Below, piece after piece: positions 1-10,513 of a stretch of 10,513 bases of DNA. Under the pieces are notes generated by a model, which was not told the DNA's origin, made no database searches, and saw only the letters and a program-made list of their open reading frames with translations. Origin of the DNA: a virus. Taxonomy: Duplodnaviria > Heunggongvirae > Uroviricota > Caudoviricetes. The DNA lies in the IMG/VR virus record IMGVR_UViG_2703718834_000006; one strand, given 5' to 3'. How positions within the stretch are numbered: position 1 is the first letter of the stretch; the number at the start of each line of letters is the position of its first letter. Made by a program: the position numbers and the translations under genes.

Positions 1-1875
1 ATGGCTAAAGCATGGAAAGATGTTATCGCTTCTCCACAGTATCAGGCGTTAACTGAAGAACAGAAAGCACAGGCTCAAGCGCAATATTTTGATGAGGTTG
101 TTGCCCCTAAGGCTGGTGACAAATGGGCTGAAGCAAGAGATCAGTTTTATGCAGCATACCCTCCGCATCAGCAGCAGAAAGAAGAACCATCATTGATGCA
201 ACAAGCTGGCGATTGGCTCACAGGTGGTCAAAGTGCAGGGCAAATTGCAGAACAGGCTGGTCGTGGTCTGGTAAACATACCGTTTGACGTATTACAGGGC
301 GGCGCAAGTCTGATTAATGCAATCAGTCAGGGGCTTGGTGGCCCCAAGGTTTTGGATGATGTTTATCGTCCAGTAGACAGACCGACAGACCCCTACGCTC
401 AAGCTGGAGAAACAATTGGCGGGTATTTAGTTCCAGGAGTTGGAACGGCAGGAAGCATGGCTATTGGATCACTGGCAGAGGCCGCAAATCAGAAAGGTGA
501 TTTCGCACAAAATGCAGCTAAAAATGCCGGAGTTAACCTTGCCGCTCAGGGTGTTCTTTCCGCAGCAGCAAAGGGAATAGGGCGTGGAATAACGGCTATA
601 AAAGGTGATATTGCGCCAGAAGTGGCAAAGAAAATTGCCACATCAGAATCGATGGGCGTGACACCAATGACATCTGATGTTATCCCGCCGAAAAATGCTT
701 TCACTCGCGGACTTACTCAGGATGCTGAGGGGGCTTTGCTCGGGACAGGCTCAAAGCGAGCGGAGCAATATGCAACGCGTAGTAAGCTGGTAAGCAATTA
801 TTTTGACCGTTTTGGTGAGTACAACCCTGATGATGTGGTGAAATCTCTGACCACCACGTTAAGGGGACGGAAGGATGCCGCTGGCGCTGTTATCAATGAC
901 GTCACCAATAAAATGGGTAATGCCGCAGTTGATACCACAAATACCATGAATGCTCTGAATACAGCGATCGCAAGACAGGAACGGCTTGGGACTTCTGCCA
1001 ATCAAAGCCTGCTTACATCCTTGCGTAACCTACGTGAAGAATTAGCAAACCCTGCAACTGATTTGGATGTTACGTTTGATCTCTTGCGCCAGCACAGAAC
1101 AGCATTTAGATCTAATGTTCAGGGAGATGCCATGGTCTTCCCCAACCAGGCAAAAGCAGCTACCAATATGGTAGAGAATGCAATGTCAAAAGACCTTCGT
1201 AACGCAGTTGCTAAAAACCTCGGTGCTTCAGACGCAGCAAAATACCTTAAAGCAAATTCCGATTATGCAAACGTTTATAATAAGGTGCTTAATAAAAACA
1301 TTGCTAACAAGCTCAACAAGGCAAGCAGTGAAGCCAGTCCTGAACTTATAAATACTGTTGTATTAAGCAGAAAACCATCTGACGTGAAACGAATCTGGAG
1401 CGCATTGGATGATAAAGGGAAAGATGCTATGCGTGCAGCTTACGTCAGCAAAATAGCGGAAAAGGCCGGTGACTCTCCAGCCAAGTTCATCACGGAAGTT
1501 AATAAGCTGAAATCTCAGTCAGGCGGTGAAATTTACAACACTATTTTTTCTGGAAAGCACATGAAAGAGCTTGATGCTCTTCATGAAGTTCTACAGCAAA
1601 CAGCAAGGTCAGACACCGCAAATGTAGTAACTCAGACGGGGCAATCACAAGCCAACAGGATAAGGACGATTGGCGCAACTGCGACTCTTGGTGTATCAAT
1701 GGGGCTTGAGGCTGGCTTTGGTGCAATGATGCGTTTGTATGAGTCCAAAGCAGCAAGGAATGCGCTCTTACGTCTGGCAAACACTAAAGCTGGAACGCCA
1801 GCTTATGAAAGAGCGCTAAATCAGGCGGCTACTGCCGTGCGCCCGCTCTTAGTTAACGAAGCTACCCGGCAGTAG
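1..1875 (+). CDS. Phage ejection / DNA-transfer (internal virion) protein, P22 gp16-like by position; possibly 5'-partial because the ORF starts at the window edge
   Basis: 624-aa uninterrupted ORF, Ala/Gln/Gly-rich with low-complexity stretches typical of podovirus ejection proteins. It is the last rightward gene before a convergent SieA-like gene and the immI-like module, the position of gene 16 in P22 (609 aa there). No recognisable catalytic motif; the call is from size, composition and synteny. Confidence 0.5.
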
Positions 1876-1897: not shown

Positions 1898-2392
1898 TTA
1901 TTTTATAGTTTTTATGAATTCTTTATTAAATCCCTTCGCTTCTCCGGGGTATCTTCCGAAGACAATTTTTATAAAAACAGAAAAAATAAAGATAGCAACG
2001 CTTAACAACAATTGCAGTATCATTGGAACCCAAAGAACTACAGGCTCTATATTCATGAAACCAAATATTCTTCCGGCGATCATGGCGAAGTACCACACTG
2101 TTATCAGCAAACTTAGTGGCATATGAATTACTGATATTACCAATCCAAGAGCATCAGTAATTCTGTTTTCAAATTTTTCAGGGGAAAACTTTTCTTTAAG
2201 GTAATTCAGTGCGCAGGCCTCATTCTCTGGATTTTCAGCATTTTTCCCTATAGCAATAGAAATCTCAGATATCCTTGATTCAATTCTTTTACGTTTAATA
2301 AAACTAGAAAAAAAGAACCACGCAATCTGCAACCCTATCCCCAGAAATAGAGTTGCGGCAACTAGCACAGCGTAACTCATAGAATCAGACAC
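1898..2392 (-). CDS. Small polytopic inner-membrane protein, SieA-like (superinfection exclusion) by position
   Basis: 164 aa with three to four hydrophobic helices ([24 protein letters not shown]; [26 protein letters not shown]; [28 protein letters not shown]). GTG start at 2392 is preceded by a perfect AGGAGG Shine-Dalgarno 5 nt upstream. Clearly AT-rich relative to its neighbours. P22 carries sieA between gene 16 and mnt in the same orientation. Confidence 0.45.
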
Positions 2393-2452: not shown

Positions 2453-3094
2453 TCAAAGCAACGGGATTTCAAGGTAAACTGCGGTTGCCAAAATACTAAC
2501 ATCTTCATTTCTAACAAGAATATTAGGATACATTGGGTTTAGGGATACTAGGTTTGTCTCTATTTCACCAATGTAAACCTGTTTGAAGCTCAATATTTGC
2601 TCTTTATCCAAAGATGCTATTACATAATCTTTGCTTTTAGCTTTTACTAGAGGGCTGAACGTGACAACCGATCCTCTGGGAAAGCTAATACCTGAACTTG
2701 TAGTCATAGCTTCACCTTCAATAGTCAATGCAAATGCAGAGTCACCAACATTGTATATTGCCGGATGAAATCTAGACGATGAATGTTCACCTGTGTTTAG
2801 GTAATGCATAACTTCATCTAGTTTGAGGATTGGTATTTGCTTTACCAGAACGTCAGGCATGACGTTTTTTGTTCCCGGCCCCTGGCCTTCACCCAGAGCT
2901 AACCACTCAGCCGTAGTGCCTAATGCGTTGGCTAATGCCTGCAATACACGAAGCCGTGGTTTAGCCTCACCACCCTCGTATGCAGCTATTTGACGTTGAA
3001 CAACACCAGCTAATTTTGACAACTGCGCCTGCGTCATACCCCTCGACTGTCTTGCCAGAGATACTCTTGATGGGAATTGATCGTCAAAATTCAT
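2453..3094 (-). CDS. Lambda-CI/LexA-like repressor: N-terminal XRE-type HTH plus C-terminal S24-peptidase-like domain with Ser-to-Ala at the nucleophile position (predicted non-cleavable)
   Basis: 213 aa. N-terminus (residues ~10-65) has a Cro/C1-type HTH pattern (MTQAQLSKLAGVVQRQIAAYEGGEAKPRLRVLQALANALGTTAEWL). C-terminus aligns with lambda CI from memory: DSAFALTIEGEAM vs DSAFWLEVEGNSM, ISFPRGSVV vs PSFPDGMLI, SFKQVY..LVSLNPMYP vs [22 protein letters not shown]. Lys171 corresponds to CI K192, but the Ser149 position is Ala129. No A-G or C-G dipeptide in the linker. GGTGA ribosome-binding site upstream of the ATG at 3094. Confidence 0.8.
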   Translation of the reverse strand: MNFDDQFPSRVSLARQSRGMTQAQLSKLAGVVQRQIAAYEGGEAKPRLRVLQALANALGTTAEWLALGEGQGPGTKNVMPDVLVKQIPILKLDEVMHYLNTGEHSSSRFHPAIYNVGDSAFALTIEGEAMTTSSGISFPRGSVVTFSPLVKAKSKDYVIASLDKEQILSFKQVYIGEIETNLVSLNPMYPNILVRNEDVSILATAVYLEIPLL

Positions 3095-3193
3095 TAGTTC
3101 ACCATAAAAAATTCATTGACTCATACTGAGTGTGAGTGAATAATCAAACCTCAAAAAGTGAGATTATGAGTTTTTCAAAAACAGGAGTGCATA
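3095..3193. promoter_or_regulatory. Divergent promoter/operator region between the CI-like gene and arc-ant; candidate Pant-like promoter TTGACT(3116-3121)-N17-AATAAT(3139-3144) with overlapping palindrome and tandem repeats
   Basis: Rightward -35/-10 pair with 17-bp spacing. Palindrome ACTCA-TAC-TGAGT at 3119-3131 overlaps the -35 and spacer, followed directly by tandem TGAGTG TGAGTG (3127-3138), with further GTGAG/TGAG copies at 3158-3170. Operator-like arrangement inside a core promoter, as with the Arc/Mnt operators at P22 Pant. Identified by eye, not scored. Confidence 0.4.
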
Positions 3194-3367
3194 ATGACTG
3201 AAAAGATATCTTCCATCAAGCCGCGTCAGGTTCGTTTTACAGAAAAGGTTGATTCACATATCCGCGAATCAGCAAAAAGATGCCATAGGTCAATTCAGGC
3301 AGAGATAGCTTATCGAATGGAGTTATTAATGAAACTTGAGGCAAAGGGCGATGTTGTCATCCAATAA
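3194..3367 (+). CDS. arc: Arc-like ribbon-helix-helix repressor (57 aa); absent from the supplied ORF track
   Basis: ATG at 3194 preceded by AGGAG (3183-3187) at 6-nt spacing; stop TAA at 3365-3367. Translation: MTEKISSIKPRQVRFTEKVDSHIRESAKRCHRSIQAEIAYRMELLMKLEAKGDVVIQ. Layout matches an RHH fold (N-terminal beta strand then two helices) and resembles P22 Arc (..RSVNSEIYQRVMESFKKEGR..) in the RS..EI and K-G motifs. Lies immediately upstream of ant, as in P22. Confidence 0.6.
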   Translation: MTEKISSIKPRQVRFTEKVDSHIRESAKRCHRSIQAEIAYRMELLMKLEAKGDVVIQ

Positions 3368-3369
3368 AA

Positions 3370-3440
3370 ATAGTGAAGCCCGGCAGTGCGCGAACACAAA
3401 CCGGGCCTCTATGTCAGTAACCGTATGCAAGGAAACTAAC
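3370..3440 (-). ncRNA. Candidate sar-like antisense RNA covering the arc-ant spacer and the ant ribosome-binding site (inferred)
   Basis: On the minus strand an extended -10 element TGcTACAAT (complement of 3447-3455) would start transcription near 3440. It would run through the complement of the ant Shine-Dalgarno/start (3429-3443) and end at the GC-rich hairpin 3378-3406, which on this strand is followed by TTCACTATTTTTA. Predicted length about 70 nt, the size and location of the P22 sar RNA. No expression evidence. Confidence 0.3.
3378..3406. terminator. GC-rich stem-loop in the arc-ant spacer; likely intrinsic terminator for leftward (antisense) transcription and possible attenuator of arc read-through
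   Basis: GCCCGG (3378-3383) pairs with CCGGGC (3401-3406); an inner GTG/CAC pairing is possible within the loop. A T-rich tract follows only on the minus strand (complement of 3365-3377). Confidence 0.35.
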
Positions 3441-4067
3441 ATGAATATTGTAGCAAAATCAGATTACAACTTCCACGGAGTTGAGTTGGTGCCCACCCGT
3501 GATATGCATGGTGTTTGGTTTACATCATCTAATATTGCATCTGCACTTAAATATGCAAATAGCCGTGCAGTAACAATGATTTATAACAAGTATAGCGATG
3601 AGTTTAGCGCCGGGATGACTCAGGTACTCGAAGTGAGTACCTCAGGAAATTATCGCAAAAAAGTGCGAGTTTTCTCACTACGCGGTGCCCACCTAATCGC
3701 GATGTTTGCTCGCACTCCGGTAGCCAAAGAGTTCCGCCGCTGGGTGCTGGATATTTTGGATCGGCAGGCAGAATGCTCACCGATTGCAAAACAGTTCACT
3801 GACGAAGAGCTGGTTAATCTCTGCTACTTACAATTGTGGATGGAGAAGAGTCAACAAATGTGCAAACACATCTACCCAGGAATGAAGCAAATTGGTTCTG
3901 AGCTTTCAGGAAGGATTTACGATATTGCATATGAGACTCGCTACATGTCAGAAGAAACCAAGAAATCACTTCTTCGTGAAATGAAGAATCTTGATACCAA
4001 CAATTTTGTCGTAAAGAACGCTCAGCCAATGCTGGCAAAACTGCGCGGCGAGGAATGGATTCATTGA
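3441..4067 (+). CDS. ant: Antirepressor Ant (Bro-N / AntA-type N-terminal domain)
   Basis: ATG at 3441 with AAGGAA ribosome-binding site at 3429-3434. The track's 3336 start is a TTG that overlaps arc and is rejected. N-terminus YNFHGVELVPTRDMHGVWFTSSNIASALKYANSRAVTMIYNKY...VRVFSLRGAHLIAMFARTPVAKEFRRWVLDILD matches the Bro-N/AntA antirepressor pattern (FxF..., WF.a.dva.aL, rG.lia.f..tp.a.efrrWv). Sits downstream of arc. Confidence 0.8.
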   Translation: MNIVAKSDYNFHGVELVPTRDMHGVWFTSSNIASALKYANSRAVTMIYNKYSDEFSAGMTQVLEVSTSGNYRKKVRVFSLRGAHLIAMFARTPVAKEFRRWVLDILDRQAECSPIAKQFTDEELVNLCYLQLWMEKSQQMCKHIYPGMKQIGSELSGRIYDIAYETRYMSEETKKSLLREMKNLDTNNFVVKNAQPMLAKLRGEEWIH

Positions 4068-4154
4068 TTGGTGCACAGGACGGCGCAAAAGAAAACCGCC
4101 AGTGTGCTGCTGGCGGCCTATGTCACACCCTTACTACCACATAAGGAATGCCTA

Positions 4155-4883
4155 ATGACTTTTAAGAATGTAGCAAACATCGGATCCGTTGTCACGGATA
4201 AAACCATTGACAGCCAGCGCCTGCTTGAGATGGTAAATCAGGCTCGTAGACAGTGCGGTGAGCCGGAGGTTCGTAATAACAAATTCATCGAGAAAATTGA
4301 AGATGAATTGGATGGAGAGCACTACACAAAAAGTGTAGTGCAAAAAGCGAACAAAACTTCGATGGTTATCATTGAGATGTCAATCAAGCAAGCATTGCGA
4401 GTTGCCGCTCGCGAGTCAAAAGCCGTTCGCCGCTCACTGGTAGACCAACTTGAAAGCATGCAAGAAGCGCACATTAAAAGCGGTAAATCAGCGAGTGGAC
4501 TTGTTGAGTATCGTCAAGCGCGAACATTGAAAATGACGGTTGAAGCTGTTACCAATCTGTTCGATCTGATGCCAAATCTTGCGCCTGAGGCAAAGCAGAC
4601 AGCGGCAGCAAGTATAATCAACCCGCTCGTTGGTTTTAATGCAATACCTCTTCCGGCAATAGAAGAGCATTACTACTCAGCAGGGGAGGTTGCAGAGCAG
4701 CTTGGAGTAACGGCCAACAAGATTGGTCGCATTGCTAACGCAAACAACCTCAAAACTGAGCAGTACGGGAAGTTCTTCCTGGATAAATCTGCGCATTCCA
4801 GCAAACAGGTGGAAGCATTCCGCTACAATGCGGAAGGCGTTAAAGCACTACAACACCTGATTCATGGGAGTAATGTTGCATAA
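4155..4883 (+). CDS. Hypothetical phage regulatory protein with C-terminal KilAC (ANT)-like HTH segment; possible second antirepressor-type protein
   Basis: ATG at 4155 with AAGGAA at 4143-4148. The track's 4068 start is a TTG directly after the ant stop and is rejected. The C-terminal stretch YYSAGEVAEQLGVTANKIGRIANANNLKTEQYGKFF resembles the KilAC-domain motif of phage antirepressors (..tEiAkelGvsa..lnk.L...g......g). The N-terminal 150 aa are not recognised. Confidence 0.5.
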   Translation: MTFKNVANIGSVVTDKTIDSQRLLEMVNQARRQCGEPEVRNNKFIEKIEDELDGEHYTKSVVQKANKTSMVIIEMSIKQALRVAARESKAVRRSLVDQLESMQEAHIKSGKSASGLVEYRQARTLKMTVEAVTNLFDLMPNLAPEAKQTAAASIINPLVGFNAIPLPAIEEHYYSAGEVAEQLGVTANKIGRIANANNLKTEQYGKFFLDKSAHSSKQVEAFRYNAEGVKALQHLIHGSNVA

Positions 4884-5104
4884 TGGCAAAGAAAAAATAT
4901 GGCATTATGCCGCCAAGAATCAAAGGAAGAGCTAGGGTAAAAGGTGATGCTGGAAGGTATCACATTCTTGGAGTTCTGTGGCATGAGAGAGCTTTAATTT
5001 TAAGTAGACCTCATGGGTACATTGAAAAGGTATCTATAGATAGAGTAGAGATTCTTCCCCTTACACCTGAAGAAGAAGAAACGTACGGACTTTTTGATAA
5101 CTAA
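4883..5104 (+). CDS. Hypothetical small basic protein (73 aa), translationally coupled to the upstream gene
   Basis: Its ATG overlaps the upstream TAA in ATAATGG (4881-4885). Basic N-terminus (MAKKKYGIMPPRIKGRARVKGDAGR) and acidic C-terminus (TPEEEETYGLFDN). Followed by a strong intrinsic terminator. No family recognised. Confidence 0.45.
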   Translation: MAKKKYGIMPPRIKGRARVKGDAGRYHILGVLWHERALILSRPHGYIEKVSIDRVEILPLTPEEEETYGLFDN

Positions 5105-5110
5105 CCAACT

Positions 5111-5137
5111 AAACCCGCTTAATCGCGGGTTTTTTCT
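5111..5137 (+). terminator. Rho-independent terminator ending the arc-ant-orf-orf operon; hairpin overlaps the mnt stop codon on the opposite strand
   Basis: AAACCCGC-TTAATC-GCGGGTTTTTTCTTTT: stem CCCGC/GCGGG flanked by A/T pairs, followed by a run of six T (5130-5135). On the minus strand only TTT follows, so termination is probably mainly rightward. Confidence 0.75.
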
Positions 5138-5376
5138 TTTCTAAGGATATCAGCCGCAACTTCTTTTACTCGTTCCGAGATTAATGAGGCCAGCCTCTCT
5201 TCTTCATCACGATACCCGCTTACAGGTGGTGGTTTGGAGAGTGATTCTTCCATCGTAGCCACAATTTCGGAATTGATAGACCTGTTATTCATTTTTGCAC
5301 GCTGTTTAATCTTGGCGTGCAACTCGTGCGTAAGCCTCAAGTGGAACTGCGCCTCATCGTATTTGCTGTACATCAT
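5119..5376 (-). CDS. mnt: Mnt-like ribbon-helix-helix repressor (85 aa)
   Basis: MMYSKYDEAQFHLRLTHELHAKIKQRAKMNNRSINSEIVATMEESLSKPPPVSGYRDEEERLASLISERVKEVAADILRKEKTRD aligns along its length with P22 Mnt as recalled (..PHFNFRMPMEVREKLKFRAEANGRSMNSELLQIVQDALSKPSPVTGYRNDAERLA..). Start is ATGATG at 5376/5373 with a GAGG ribosome-binding site. The 217-aa track ORF (5119-5772) is an in-frame upstream extension and is rejected. Confidence 0.8.
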   Translation of the reverse strand: MMYSKYDEAQFHLRLTHELHAKIKQRAKMNNRSINSEIVATMEESLSKPPPVSGYRDEEERLASLISERVKEVAADILRKEKTRD

Positions 5377-5462
5377 CAATGCCTCACCAAATGGGTGGAA
5401 TGGCATCGTAAAACCTACTGTACAAATCAACAATCGTACCGTTTCGGTATGCAACAAATACC

Positions 5463-5478
5463 AACCGTGGCCACGCTG
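5463..5478. promoter_or_regulatory. Palindromic candidate operator (perfect 10-bp core CGTGGCCACG at 5466-5475) between mnt and the tailspike gene
   Basis: AACCGTGG|CCACGCTG. GC-rich dyad symmetry built from GTGG/CCAC elements, the same elements that make up the P22 Mnt operator half-sites, though in the opposite relative order. Lies about 90 bp upstream of the mnt start and about 35 bp upstream of the tailspike start. Confidence 0.3.
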
Positions 5479-5508
5479 CGGCGATTCATTGTATCTGGAG
5501 CAAATTAA

Positions 5509-7569
5509 ATGACAGACATTACAGCCAATGTTGTAGTAAGCATGCCTTCGCAACTCTTCACTATGGCTCGTTCTTTTAAAGCCGTAGCTAATGGAAAGAT
5601 TTATATCGGAAAAATTGACACTGATCCGGTAAATACTGAAAACCAGATTCAGGTTTATGTGGAGAACGAAGACGGCTCTCACGTTCCTGTTTCGCAACCA
5701 ATCATCATTAACGCTGCTGGTTACCCGGTATATAACGGACAGATTGCCAAATTCGTTACCGTGCAAGGCCATTCTATGGCTGTTTATGATGCATATGGTG
5801 CGCAGCAGTTCTATTTTCCGAATGTGCTGAAGTATGACCCTGATCAGTTCAAAGTTTTACTGACAGGGAACGAAGGTTCGACATATATTGGAGATGGCGC
5901 AGGAACTGTAAGCGATTCGCTAAGAAGCTTGGAACATGAGTTTGAACTAATCCAAAGTTTGGATGAAAGGCCAAATCCACCACCTACAGAAGGATATTCA
6001 GGGTATAAGCGCTGGAACCCGATTCATGAAGATGGTTTTCAACTTGGCAGATATACGTTTAAAACTCCAACGCATGTTGATTTTCAGTTTGTATGCGACC
6101 CAATAAATAGTGACATTGGACCAATATTTTCTATGGGCATGGATGGTATAGATCAGCGATCAGCATTTTTTTCTCAAGACAGCTATGAAATTAGAAATGT
6201 AATGATGGATGGGGGGACGGCAAAGCTTGTTGAATTTGAGCCATGGACATCTCATATGGCAACAGTAGAGAAATGTCGTGTTATCAATCCTGAAGATAGC
6301 AACGAGTGGGTAGTTAATTTTAAAGCACAAAATTGGTGGCCACATATTATAAATAATACATACATGGAATATAACGATCACGCCAATAATTTTGTCAAGG
6401 CAATTGATGATGGTGGTAACACAACAGATAGATATTCAGGAAATAGTAGGCTTTTTATTGCATTTAATAGATGTGCATGGCAGGGTGGTAGCGCTGTCGG
6501 TACTGGCATTATGTCATATACATCTGCTGTCGCAACGAGAATAAAAGACAACTCCGCACAGAATGCAAAAACATGCGTTATTTTTGGATATCCATCAACG
6601 TTTTCTTCAGTTGATGGACTTTATTGCGAGATGGCATTTGGACACCAACAAGTCGTACAAATTGGCGATTCAGAAACGACATCGCAGCAGATACTGACTG
6701 ACATTACTATAAATGATGTTTATGCTAATTTACATGGCATAAACTCAAACAGAATAATTGTTGCTGGGAATGATGATGTGATAATGAACTATTTGGAGGT
6801 TGACAAGATATTTATTTCAAATATTCCAGGGTCAGGTTTTATTCAGCCAATAATATCAATTAACGATTTGCCATATCAAAAGATTGTTGCAGGAAGGATT
6901 ACTGCTGAAAATATGCCGCTTCTTCCGTTAACATCCAACCATGTTTCTGTTATTGATAAATACAACGCAGATATACCAGCTCTGAATGGTGACATTATTT
7001 ATATAGAGAACAGTACAGTAAGTATTCCTCCCAACTCATCAACTGCTGTTGCTCCTGGATGGTTTGTAAGATCAACATCTAATACAGTGTTTACTAGGAG
7101 TGGTGCAGGGACTCCAAACAATGCATTGAGAATGAGTCGTTATATTGCATCTGTTCTTAGTAATGCTGGCGCAACGACATCGATTACATTCGAACATCCA
7201 CGAGCCGACTTGGTGAATGGTGAGGCAGTGACAGTCCAGGCTTTGTTTAACGCTGATGTTGAACTAACATTTTTAGTGCACATATATGTAGCAAATGACA
7301 ATGGAGCAAGAACTACACTACTTTCAAAAACATTAGTAGGTGGAGGCTCGTGGAAGGAAATGACCTTTACGGTTGGAGTTTCAGGGGTTGAAAATACTAA
7401 ATCATGTATAGTTGTAGAGATCGGAGCCACAACACCATACTCTACTAATATTTTTGTCACAGGGCATCGCATGAACAGAGGTCGCTTTGGCCTGTGCGGA
7501 GCGGCTAATACTTTTAGCTACGCTGAAACTGAAAGGATGAAGTCGGATTATGATTATATAACCCCATAG
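5509..7569 (+). CDS. Tailspike protein: P22-type N-terminal head-binding domain fused to a divergent receptor-binding domain
   Basis: 686 aa; GGAG ribosome-binding site 9 nt upstream. Residues 1-116 ([42 protein letters not shown]...[15 protein letters not shown]...[10 protein letters not shown]) are near-identical to the P22 gp9 head-binding domain as recalled. After about nt 5857 the sequence has no resemblance to the P22 endorhamnosidase domain and becomes visibly AT-rich. Confidence 0.9.
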
Positions 7570-8064: not shown

Positions 8065-9075
8065 CTAACCTTCAGCTACTATAATTTCTTTTCTCTTTCT
8101 TCTTAAGAACGGCTTTTCGATATAATAATAAGAAACAGTCGCCAGTAATGTAGTTGCAAAAAGACTAAGAGCTATGGATGGGATGAATTTATTAGTTATA
8201 TTATTTATAATGATCTGTTGTACTGGGAATGCGTATATATACAAACCATAAGATATATCAATCCTTCCGTTTATAACCCTGTCTTTAATGGTTAGGCCAA
8301 GAACAATAATTATAACAGACAAACATAGTGGCGCTACAATTTGTATTTCCGGCTTACCAGTCACGGCAATAAGCAACAATAAGGCAGTAATGAACACTTG
8401 CTTTTTATACTTCAACCATGACTCAGTAGTCATTGACAATAAAGCACCAAAAAAGAATGGCATGCCAAATAATGATAATGATTTAAAAGGCACACTAAAA
8501 TATGTGTAATTTTCAGGATAGAAGTTGAAAATTATTGTGGAAAGTATGCATGTAACTAATAATAAAGCAGGCCCGACCCATGTGAACGATATAGAGAGCG
8601 CAAGGCCAATTATTAGATAGCATGAAAATTCTATAGGCAGCGTCCAAAGGCTTCCATTAATAACATGAGGGTAAAAGTAATCAGAAAACACTCCATCCAC
8701 ATAACTCTGCAGGAAAAAAGTATTTCTTATGATATTTAAGTATGGCTGGGAAGAAAATAAATATGCGTAACTATTATTGGAGTTAAATTCTACTGCGACA
8801 AATAAATACATAACAACAGAGCATACAAATAATGCAGGAAATATACGCAGACACCTTTTCCTCATGAACTCGATAAACGAACCAGATGAATTAAAACTTT
8901 TTGGCATTAAGAAACCAGATAAACAAAAGAAAATTGCAACTGCGACCGCACCATAACTATCCCATTGAAGAAAAACAGGCTCATGATCACCAGATAACCT
9001 GAAGTGATGAGAAAATAAAACCATGTAGGCGGCGACATGTCTAATTATATCAAATGAATTATTTCGCTCGCTCAT
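8065..9075 (-). CDS. Integral-membrane acyltransferase family 3 protein (Oac-like; putative O-antigen acetylase for lysogenic conversion)
   Basis: 336 aa with about 10 predicted transmembrane helices. Carries acyltransferase-3 hallmark motifs: SFDIIRHVAAYMVLFSHH (R/H motif), YGAVAVAIFFCLSGFLM, RKRCLRIFPALF and SYGLYIYAFPVQ. Strong GAGGAG ribosome-binding site 5 nt upstream of the ATG at 9075. Very AT-rich. Position between tailspike and int matches oac in phage Sf6. Confidence 0.8.
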   Translation of the reverse strand: MSERNNSFDIIRHVAAYMVLFSHHFRLSGDHEPVFLQWDSYGAVAVAIFFCLSGFLMPKSFNSSGSFIEFMRKRCLRIFPALFVCSVVMYLFVAVEFNSNNSYAYLFSSQPYLNIIRNTFFLQSYVDGVFSDYFYPHVINGSLWTLPIEFSCYLIIGLALSISFTWVGPALLLVTCILSTIIFNFYPENYTYFSVPFKSLSLFGMPFFFGALLSMTTESWLKYKKQVFITALLLLIAVTGKPEIQIVAPLCLSVIIIVLGLTIKDRVINGRIDISYGLYIYAFPVQQIIINNITNKFIPSIALSLFATTLLATVSYYYIEKPFLRRKRKEIIVAEG

Positions 9076-9355: not shown

Positions 9356-10513
9356 TCACTCAACCTTTTCATCAATCCAGTCCGCCCACCATTGCATCAT
9401 TTCTCTGCGTTTATCGAGATACTGAGCATGGTTGTAAATCCCACGCACAGATCCGCCGTTGGCATGTGCCAGTTGCACTTCAATAGCGTCAGCAGGCCAT
9501 TCGTGCTCGTTCATAATTGTGCTGAATTCATGCCTGAATCCGTGACCGCTTTCCAGACCCTCATAGCCGATTTGTTTGATCACAAGCAATACCGCGTTCT
9601 CGCAGATTGGCTTCTTCTTATCGTTGCGCCCGGCAAAAACAAACTCTGATACTGGTTTAGTGATGGAGCTTAGCGTAGTGAGAAGTTCAACCACCTGGTC
9701 TGACATAGGAACCACATGAATCCTGCGTCCCTTCATCACACTGGCGTCGATAGTGATAATCCTGTTTTCAAAATCGACGTTCTTCCATAGCATGGAACGA
9801 AGCTCTTTCGTTCTTAGGGCAGTGTAGCGTAAAACTTTGGTCGCAATAAGCGATACGATACTTCCTGAAAATGTTGCCAGTGCTTTATTGAATGCTGGGA
9901 TCTGGTCGGCAGGTAAAAACGGGAAGTTTTTCTTGCGGTATCCCTTCATGGCGTCAGCAAGGTCAGGTGCCGGGTTATATTTAGCCCTACCGGTAACAAT
10001 AGCGTAACGGAAAACCTCGCCGCATCTTCTGCGTGCTTTATTGGCTCGCTCCATTGCACCGCGATCTTCAAACCTGCGGATTACTTCCAGCAGTTGCATA
10101 GGCTCAATATCCTGAATTTCAAGGCCGCCGATGATAGGTAAAATGTCGTCATCAAACATTTTTGCAAGTTCAGTTGCATAGCCTACTGACCAGACTTGCT
10201 TCTTGTGCTCGTACCATTCCTTGTAAATCGCACTAAAGGAATTGTTGTTAGACGAAGCCTTTTTCGCTTTTACCGGATCGATGCCAACCGAGATGTCTTT
10301 CCTCGCAGTCCATGCTTTATCCCTTGCCTCCTGCAAAGTCATAAGCGGATATTTTCCTACGGTCAGGATTTTCTCCTTACCGTCAATCTTGTAGCGAAGC
10401 TGCCATACCTTTTTCCCTGACACAGGGACATAAAGGTACAGGCCATTACCATCGAGTAGGCGGTATGGTTTTTCTTTCGGCTTTGCTGCTTCAATCTGCT
10501 TAACGGTGAGCAT
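9356..10513 (-). CDS. int: Tyrosine site-specific integrase (P4/P22-type, with N-terminal arm-binding domain); complete, start codon at the last bases of the window
   Basis: 385 aa. N-terminus MLTVKQIEAAKPKEKPYRLLDGNGLYLYVPVSGKKVWQLRYKIDGKEKILTVGKYPLMTLQEARDKA is the canonical start of P4-like integrases. C-terminus holds the catalytic region (HGFRHEFST...VQLAHANGGSVRGIYNHAQY) with the H-x-x-R and Tyr nucleophile context. Confidence 0.9.
   Translation of the reverse strand: MLTVKQIEAAKPKEKPYRLLDGNGLYLYVPVSGKKVWQLRYKIDGKEKILTVGKYPLMTLQEARDKAWTARKDISVGIDPVKAKKASSNNNSFSAIYKEWYEHKKQVWSVGYATELAKMFDDDILPIIGGLEIQDIEPMQLLEVIRRFEDRGAMERANKARRRCGEVFRYAIVTGRAKYNPAPDLADAMKGYRKKNFPFLPADQIPAFNKALATFSGSIVSLIATKVLRYTALRTKELRSMLWKNVDFENRIITIDASVMKGRRIHVVPMSDQVVELLTTLSSITKPVSEFVFAGRNDKKKPICENAVLLVIKQIGYEGLESGHGFRHEFSTIMNEHEWPADAIEVQLAHANGGSVRGIYNHAQYLDKRREMMQWWADWIDEKVE

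Follow-up and report, generated by a model that had tools for sequence, protein, structure and literature searches.

A lambda CI-like repressor lacking the S24 catalytic serine in an immI-type antirepressor cassette of a P22-like Escherichia coli prophage

Several phages have a non-cleavable primary repressor that is inactivated by an antirepressor; 186 (Tum) and SPC32H (Rep/Ant) are examples. The Gifsy repressors GfoR and GtgR are described in PMC3121763 as primary immunity repressors of about 150 aa without an S24 domain, in phages whose ant genes carry LexA boxes. In P22-like phages the stretch that separates the ejection genes from the tailspike gene, named the 'ant moron', is in rapid flux (Villafane et al. 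2008, PMC2629481), and the P22 immI logic comprises Mnt, Arc, sar and ant (PMC2629481, PMC7380047). P22 ant is under the control of Mnt, and P22 ant mutants are still SOS-inducible (PMC7380047). Here we analyse a related locus in the late-region end of a P22-like (Lederbergvirus) E. coli prophage. The 'window' is the whole stretch of DNA analysed (10,513 nucleotides or 10.5 kb; IMG/VR virus record IMGVR_UViG_2703718834_000006). The gene of interest (2453-3094, minus strand) encodes a CI-like repressor of 213 aa, divergent from an operon that includes an antirepressor gene, ant.

On balance, we favour the reading that this protein serves as maintenance repressor in a mobile cassette of antirepressor genes, an 'ant moron' of the immI type. 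The system is a new version of the classic P22 immI circuit and not a new kind of system. As in P22 immI, the locus lies between the gene-16 homologue and the tailspike gene with a sieA-like gene adjacent, and the maintenance repressor is divergent from an operon in which a small, probably Arc-like gene comes first, followed by ant (with a P22_AR_C domain). No SOS input is predicted, again as in P22, and a candidate antisense RNA would extend over the beginning of ant. It differs from P22 immI in several respects: the divergent repressor is of the CI type (HTH_3 plus S24-like) whereas that of P22 is the ribbon-helix-helix (RHH) protein Mnt; there are two antirepressor genes; the Mnt homologue is displaced, convergent and beside the tailspike gene; and the cassette is also found inside siphovirus tail clusters.

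The repressor shares its two-domain architecture, its fold and the Lys general base with lambda CI, P22 C2, 434 cI and LexA (MEROPS S24). It differs from these self-cleaving repressors in having Ala instead of the Ser nucleophile and Val-Met instead of Ala-Gly, and in having a secondary role, probably ant control, and not that of master lysogeny repressor. It resembles the Gifsy repressors GfoR and GtgR (PMC3121763), and those of 186 and SPC32H, in that it is predicted not to cleave itself and antirepressor genes occur in the same phage. Unlike those repressors, it would not be primary, it retains a dead S24 fold, its ant has no LexA box and its gene is located upstream of ant. The Fels-1 antirepressor gene fsoA is, according to PMC3121763, also under a phage repressor and not LexA. 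There, the controller is the cleavable primary repressor; here, it would be a dedicated, non-cleavable second repressor.

The S24-like domain of the repressor

The open reading frame (ORF) 2453-3094 does encode the protein quoted in a preliminary description of this DNA. Its parts are as follows:

2453-3094, minus strand: CI-like repressor, 213 aa (Pfam HTH_3 and Peptidase_S24)
2885-3094, minus strand: HTH_3 N-terminal domain, residues ~1-70, followed by a conserved linker
2807-2812, minus strand: codons of Val95-Met96, at the lambda CI Ala111-Gly112 scissile bond (MAFFT)
2456-2773, minus strand: S24-like C-terminal domain, residues 108-213
2708-2710, minus strand: codon GCT of Ala129, in the nucleophile column of S24 proteins (aligned by phmmer, Pfam and MAFFT)
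2582-2584, minus strand: codon AAA of Lys171, equivalent to the general base Lys192 of lambda CI and kept

Pfam identifies HTH_3, a helix-turn-helix (HTH) domain, at residues 14-65 (E=9e-13) and Peptidase_S24 at 108-206 (E=1.3e-12). In a phmmer search of PDB, residues 108-206 match the C-terminal domain of lambda CI (E ~1e-7). In this alignment EGEAM is paired with EGNSM and SFKQ with TFKK, which places Ala129 at lambda Ser149 and Lys171 at Lys192; MAFFT gives the same correspondence. The Ser nucleophile of the G-x-S-M motif is thus replaced, and the Gly-x-x-Met and Phe-Lys motifs are preserved. The scissile-bond position was taken from a MAFFT alignment of 130 sequences, including lambda CI and about 128 relatives, in which Val95-Met96 occupies the scissile columns. 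The protein has no Cys, and its sole Ala-Gly (A29-G30) is within the HTH, so that the linker contains neither Ala-Gly nor Cys-Gly. The preliminary description had proposed the alignment with the lambda CI self-cleavage domain, the lost Ser, the kept Lys and the linker without a cleavage dipeptide, and all four points stand.

AlphaFold2, given 23 family sequences, produced a model with a mean predicted local distance difference test score (pLDDT) of 86.5. Compared with known structures by Foldseek, this model is most similar to lambda CI, both full-length (3bdn, E=2e-11) and as the C-terminal domain alone (1f39, root mean square deviation 1.8 A); LexA and UmuD' come next. The fold can be confidently predicted to be lambda-CI-like. 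The model includes a helix at residues 92-101, where lambda CI carries the cleavage loop. Profile alignment and structure prediction had been suggested as checks in the preliminary description; the alignments place Ala in the nucleophile column and reveal no cleavage site. With the S24-like fold kept and both the Ser and the Ala-Gly/Cys-Gly site gone, RecA-stimulated self-cleavage is very unlikely on the strength of these alignments and of the model, as had been anticipated, and the protein is predicted to remain uncleaved in vitro. It is a structural homologue of the S24 repressors, but both the Ser nucleophile and the scissile bond are missing, and the name of self-cleaving repressor of the LexA family does not fit it.

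Retention of Lys171, the hydroxyl residues that follow Ala129 (EAMTTSSG) and the presence of Ser in most family members might suggest that the protein is still self-cleaving or SOS-responsive by way of a non-canonical nucleophile (Thr131, Thr132, Ser133 or Ser134), or that it is cleaved in trans by an S24 partner. We consider this highly improbable: Ser-to-Ala is the classic inactivating change (LexA S119A traps the uncleaved structure; PDB 1jhh and 1jhc, both among the Foldseek matches), the scissile dipeptide is Val-Met in a segment predicted to be helical, and the residues at the Ser and Lys positions toggle (Ser/Ala and Lys/Arg) among close relatives that are otherwise strongly constrained.

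This constraint is seen when the window gene is compared with those of four loci (L014, L003, L012 and L013; 72-92% protein identity). Synonymous sites are saturated, and the nonsynonymous divergence (dN) is 0.05-0.16 for the N-terminal and 0.09-0.27 for the C-terminal domain. As synonymous divergence (dS) is saturated in nearly every comparison, domain-wise dN/dS ratios are not given and the conclusion is a qualitative one: saturated dS together with low dN indicates strong purifying selection on the whole repressor, its Ala-bearing C-terminal domain included. The dead S24 domain is maintained, not decaying.

An indexed search provided 22 repressor homologues (P0001-P0022), which were aligned with the window protein. 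At the nucleophile position, Ala is found in the window protein and in P0001, P0002, P0004, P0005 and P0022. Ser is found in the more distant homologues and also in P0003, which is closer (81% identical) than the Ala-bearing P0004 and P0005; relatives of 76% and 72% identity carry Ala. Ala is encoded by GCT or GCA and Ser by TCT, TCA or TCG, a difference of a single base. Four homologues, P0012, P0018, P0021 and P0022, have Arg in place of Lys. The position of the lambda 'VQAG' cleavage site is still recognisable in distant homologues (VQAR, VQSR, IMAG, VHSF, EAS), with Ala-Gly kept in a single member of this alignment, P0016. The toggling between Ser and Ala, the Lys/Arg swaps and the loss of Ala-Gly together indicate that catalysis is not under selection but that the domain is.

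Catalytic loss is common among the relatives. An exhaustive search of 1.84 billion cluster representatives yielded 121 HTH-S24 relatives, which were aligned and counted. Ser, Lys and an Ala-Gly or Cys-Gly site are all present in 19, another 57 retain Ser and Lys but have lost the cleavage site, and 45 lack Ser and/or Lys (23 with Ala, 29 with Arg); these counts come from a set skewed to kin of the query and do not describe CI-like repressors at large. In these alignments catalytic loss appears as a family-wide trend, a gradient along which the window protein is a single point rather than an isolated case. The family represents a natural series of S24 pseudo-enzymes, with Ser, Lys and Ala-Gly ranging from all intact to all lost, and is suited to asking which functions other than cleavage the domain may serve.

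Two other features were observed among the homologues. The distant members P0012-P0021 (alignment columns 300-367) carry a C-terminal extension of 50-70 aa with a conserved amphipathic end motif, for example RLSALENRLDEIMHLIRKG, which may form an extra oligomerisation helix; the clade of the window protein has no such extension. P0023, P0024, P0050, P0056, P0085 and P0114 are proteins of 500-5,600 aa with 5-11 tandem HTH copies much like the N-terminal domain of the repressor.

The mobile cassette and its candidate control elements

The cassette and the operon to which it belongs include:

3095-3193: divergent control region, between the repressor and the 57-aa gene
3116-3144, plus strand: predicted ant-operon promoter, TTGACT-17-AATAAT (sigma-70 scan, 10/12 matches)
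3119-3131: candidate operator O1, palindrome ACTCA-TAC-TGAGT, between -35 and -10
3158-3171: candidate operator O2, GTGAGATTATGAGT (TGAG repeat, 8-bp period), just downstream of the predicted start
3194-3367, plus strand: 57-aa first gene of the ant operon, probable RHH (Arc/CopG-like)
3364-3455, minus strand: candidate sar-like antisense RNA with extended -10, two hairpins and terminator (fold and covariation)
3441-4067, plus strand: antirepressor Ant (Pfam Bro-N, E=1.9e-10, and P22_AR_C, E=2.8e-14; phrog_245, E=2e-53)
4152-4883, plus strand: second antirepressor-family gene, KilA in the JEP4 annotation (phrog_1726, E=5e-101)
4883-5104, plus strand: 73-aa conserved ORF, final gene of the ant operon (phrog_4977)

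We compared 13 contexts of the repressor gene: the window, phage JEP4 (L001), Providencia phage PSTNGR2lys (L002) and the contigs of P0002-P0007, P0015, P0016, P0020 and P0022. In every one, the repressor is divergent from an ORF of 56-67 aa, which is followed by one or two antirepressor-family genes with Bro-N/P22_AR_C, P22_AR_N, Phage_pRha or ORF6N domains. The preliminary description regarded the pairing of repressor and ant as unusual. Within this family it is the rule. The distance of about 350 bp that it gave is correct: ant starts at 3441, 347 bp from the repressor start. The antirepressor payload changes from locus to locus; the repressor and the small ORF are constant.

The cassette occurs in several settings. 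It is P22-like in the window, JEP4 and L009 (gene 16 to tailspike; in the window, between the gene-16 (ejection) and gene-9 (tailspike) homologues) and lambda-like in the siphovirus loci L003, L008 and L015 (tape-measure/minor-tail genes or near gpJ). It adjoins other tail genes in L013 and L014 and lies beside an integrase at the end of a Salmonella prophage in L005-L007. The presence of the same gene trio in unrelated phage settings identifies it as a mobile three-part unit, which travels between podovirus and siphovirus tail regions. L007 and the window share 86% identity in the 57-aa gene but only 46% in the repressor, a mosaic that indicates recombination within an intergenic region of fixed length. 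This length, including both start codons, is 105-107 bp in nine of ten related loci.

JEP4 is particularly informative since its repressor is identical to that of the window and its immC region is located elsewhere. This immC is complete (c2-cro-c1) and encodes a P22-C2-type repressor with VSAG/C, GDSM and FKK, which is canonical and cleavable. The cassette protein is therefore a second repressor. The CI-like architecture and the JEP4 annotation 'repressor protein C2' could be taken to mean that it is the primary lysogeny repressor of the prophage in a relocated immunity region, but we give this hardly any weight in view of the immC of JEP4, the location of the cassette within the tail-gene clusters of unrelated phages, the presence of only antirepressor genes downstream and the lack of a cro- or cII-like partner in the cassette.

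The control region is rich in one pentamer: TGAGT/ACTCA occurs four times in 99 bp where 0.23 would be expected (P ~9e-5). The context of the ant -35 element, TTGACTCAT, is conserved across loci. A perfect or near-perfect O1-type palindrome (ACTCAT-N-ATGAGT) is present in all four closest loci, and O2 is unchanged in four loci in spite of differences in the surrounding intergenic sequence. No LexA box (CTGT-N8-ACAG, at most one mismatch) occurs in 3095-3193, and the three matches elsewhere are at chance level.

Other candidates in this region were discarded. An inverted repeat, CCTCA-N5-TGAGA (3149-3163), was considered as an operator, but JEP4, with an identical protein, reads CTACA there. 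A minus-strand promoter chosen manually (-35 TGCACT at 3191-3186; -10 CATAAT at 3168-3163) has only 8/12 matches and is not conserved in L012. Across cassettes, the 57-aa family has two types of beta-strand, RQVRF and MAYRM/ISYRP; assigning operators by co-variation of these types with intergenic motifs gave no clean pattern.

The 57-aa family corresponds to PHROG 10182 ('unknown function'). Pfam gives weak matches (ParD_like, 8e-4; Arc, 0.011), and a profile of ten homologues compared with PDB matches only RHH structures (AmrZ, CopG-family, pArc), and in these matches the strand and the conserved Arg-Ser of the family are in register. With hhalign the family aligns with the Mnt homologue of the window over 37 columns (E=9.5e-4). 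A BLASTP comparison with P22 Arc produced no match, and a single-sequence AlphaFold2 prediction consists of one long helix, which is uninformative for an obligate-dimer RHH protein. From these profiles the 57-aa protein is a probable RHH analogue of Arc. The moron of the E. coli HS prophage (HS-1) was described in 2008 as apparently without arc (PMC2629481). In RefSeq, the HS 57-aa gene bears the tag ECHS_RS25735, far out of series between RS01605 and RS01610; we take this to mean that the gene was annotated afterwards, which would account for the remark made in 2008.

The candidate antisense RNA would start from an extended -10 (TGcTACAAT, 3455-3447, minus strand) within the first ant codons. 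The predicted transcript, from about 3440 to 3364, would run across the start codon and ribosome-binding site of ant as far as a GC-rich hairpin and a U-run, which overlaps the stop codon of the 57-aa gene. The minimum free energy of the 79-nt sequence is -33.3 kcal/mol (z = -6.1). Two hairpins are kept in nine loci with compensatory changes in 10 of 17 pairs. In these loci 92.8% of the cells are paired. Shifting the partners by 1-3 columns lowers this value to 35-48% and the covariation score from 0.58 to 0.06-0.20. There are 22 G-U cells against three A-C cells, which favours an RNA from the minus strand over the mRNA. An Rfam scan of the whole window (E<=1) returned nothing. The candidate thus shows no sequence similarity to P22 sar, which likewise lies across the ant start (PMC2629481). 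Judged by structure conservation and by analogy, it would strengthen the parallel with immI.

Role of the repressor

The simplest reading of the Mnt-like position, together with the separate C2 of JEP4, is that the repressor acts on ant and that the target of Ant is the repressor of immC. By analogy with Mnt in P22, it would most likely hold ant off. The preliminary description suggested that the repressor needs to be inactivated and that the neighbouring Ant supplies this inactivation. This part was not borne out: the divergent, Mnt-like position is found in 13 of 13 contexts and JEP4 has its own C2. The causal arrow drawn between the two proteins is probably inverted, and the cassette protein is unlikely to be a master repressor that Ant has to inactivate.

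In the circuit we propose, the HTH, which is of the 434/P22 type, would bind the TGAGT/ACTCA-rich operators in the 99-bp divergent region. This would shut the strong ant promoter (3116-3144) both in the lysogen and in superinfecting phages with the same cassette. The S24-like domain, its catalysis lost, would be kept purely for dimerisation or cooperativity and, as a consequence, the ant operon would be blind to RecA/SOS, like P22 ant under Mnt. A repressor predicted to be non-cleavable and an ant promoter without a LexA box both point in this direction. The 57-aa Arc-like protein would exert negative feedback on the ant operon, and the sar-like RNA over the ant ribosome-binding site would add post-transcriptional silencing. 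The Ant proteins would target the primary, cleavable C2-type immC repressor of the phage or the repressors of co-resident prophages. This would represent the logic of P22 immI, a textbook example of secondary immunity, rebuilt around a lambda-CI-type protein with a decayed protease. In E. coli and Salmonella, the cassette would be a candidate for the regulation of cross-induction among prophages.

A different possibility is that the non-cleavable CI-like repressor is itself the target of the adjacent Ant, forming a self-contained switch or positive feedback on ant. Its C-terminal domain is 26-34% identical to those of lambda CI and P22 C2, and several lambdoid repressors are inactivated by the Ant of P22. 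The Gifsy phages (PMC3121763) are a precedent for antirepressors that inactivate non-cleavable repressors, but their repressor genes are in the immunity region whereas this one is in a late-region moron. Moreover, the repressor is divergent from the ant operon, so that production of Ant requires its prior removal, and no independent trigger for its loss is seen, neither a LexA box nor a cleavage site. JEP4 also provides a natural Ant target, an ordinary cleavable C2. We therefore regard this alternative as unlikely.

A variant that we consider less probable still combines both roles. Here, the dead S24 domain would also be a docking surface to which Ant or RecA* binds, in addition to the immC repressor, and leakage of Ant would give a self-amplifying bistable switch. 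If so, leaked Ant would titrate its own gatekeeper, which is not possible with the unrelated Mnt of P22, and this would explain why a CI-type and not an RHH protein was recruited into the cassette.

Several observations weigh against the interpretation of the protein as a maintenance repressor of ant. The immC region of this prophage is outside the window, and its separate primary repressor is deduced from JEP4. The Mnt homologue at 5119-5376 is also present, and a division of labour between two repressors is possible. The assignment of the 57-aa protein to the RHH class is based on weak scores. A common half-site would be expected from the near-invariant recognition helix, but most loci share only ACTCAT at the -35 and one ATGAGT. 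Finally, a promoter scan of 3095-3193 found no convincing leftward promoter for the repressor gene.

Neighbouring genes and occurrence

The remaining features of the window are:

1-1875, plus strand: ejection-protein gene (gene-16 homologue)
1898-2392, minus strand: SieA-like superinfection-exclusion membrane protein (phrog_7745, E=7e-109)
5111-5132: bidirectional terminator, a hairpin with flanking A- and T-runs, where the ant operon and the mnt homologue converge
5119-5376, minus strand: Mnt/Arc-family repressor homologue, 85 aa (Pfam Arc, E=4e-14), adjoining the tailspike gene
5509-7569, plus strand: tailspike gene (gene-9 homologue)
8065-9075, minus strand: O-antigen acyltransferase (Acyl_transf_3)
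9356-10513, minus strand: IntS-type integrase

The Mnt homologue is convergent with the ant operon and 2 kb from the divergent repressor/57-aa pair. It is absent from the siphovirus contexts of the cassette and is part of the P22-like backbone, not of the mobile unit. It looks like the remnant of an older mnt-only moron to which the new cassette was added. The 132-bp spacer between it and the tailspike gene (5377-5508) has a promoter-like site at 5515-5488 (minus strand).

The SieA-like gene is 60 bp downstream of the repressor gene on the same strand and is probably co-expressed with it from the prophage. JEP4 has no SieA-like gene, which indicates a separate insertion. A promoter-like site (2456-2428) is located ahead of it.

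Among phage records, the cassette was found only in JEP4. In 5,426 complete E. coli genomes, the segment 2453-4067 is nearly full-length in 27 and at least partial in 92 (~0.5-1.7%). One carrier is the model commensal E. coli HS (L021, NC_009800.1 326165-327779), where the cassette DNA is 99% identical to that of the window. In this strain an insertion sequence, an IS3 element, breaks the second antirepressor gene, as in the figure of PMC2629481; that 2008 paper draws the HS ant region but does not analyse it. Our literature search found no description of a CI-type repressor in an ant moron, and neither the JEP4 papers nor the Shiga toxin (Stx)-phage papers discuss this repressor. RefSeq labels the protein 'helix-turn-helix domain-containing protein' in HS and 'LexA family transcriptional regulator' in one genome. 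Some caution is needed with annotations of this kind, as SOS inducibility could be predicted wrongly from labels such as 'repressor C2' or 'LexA family'.

At the other end of the window, the acyltransferase gene is located between the tailspike and integrase genes, the same arrangement as that of oac in phage Sf6, and is likely to be a serotype-converting gene.

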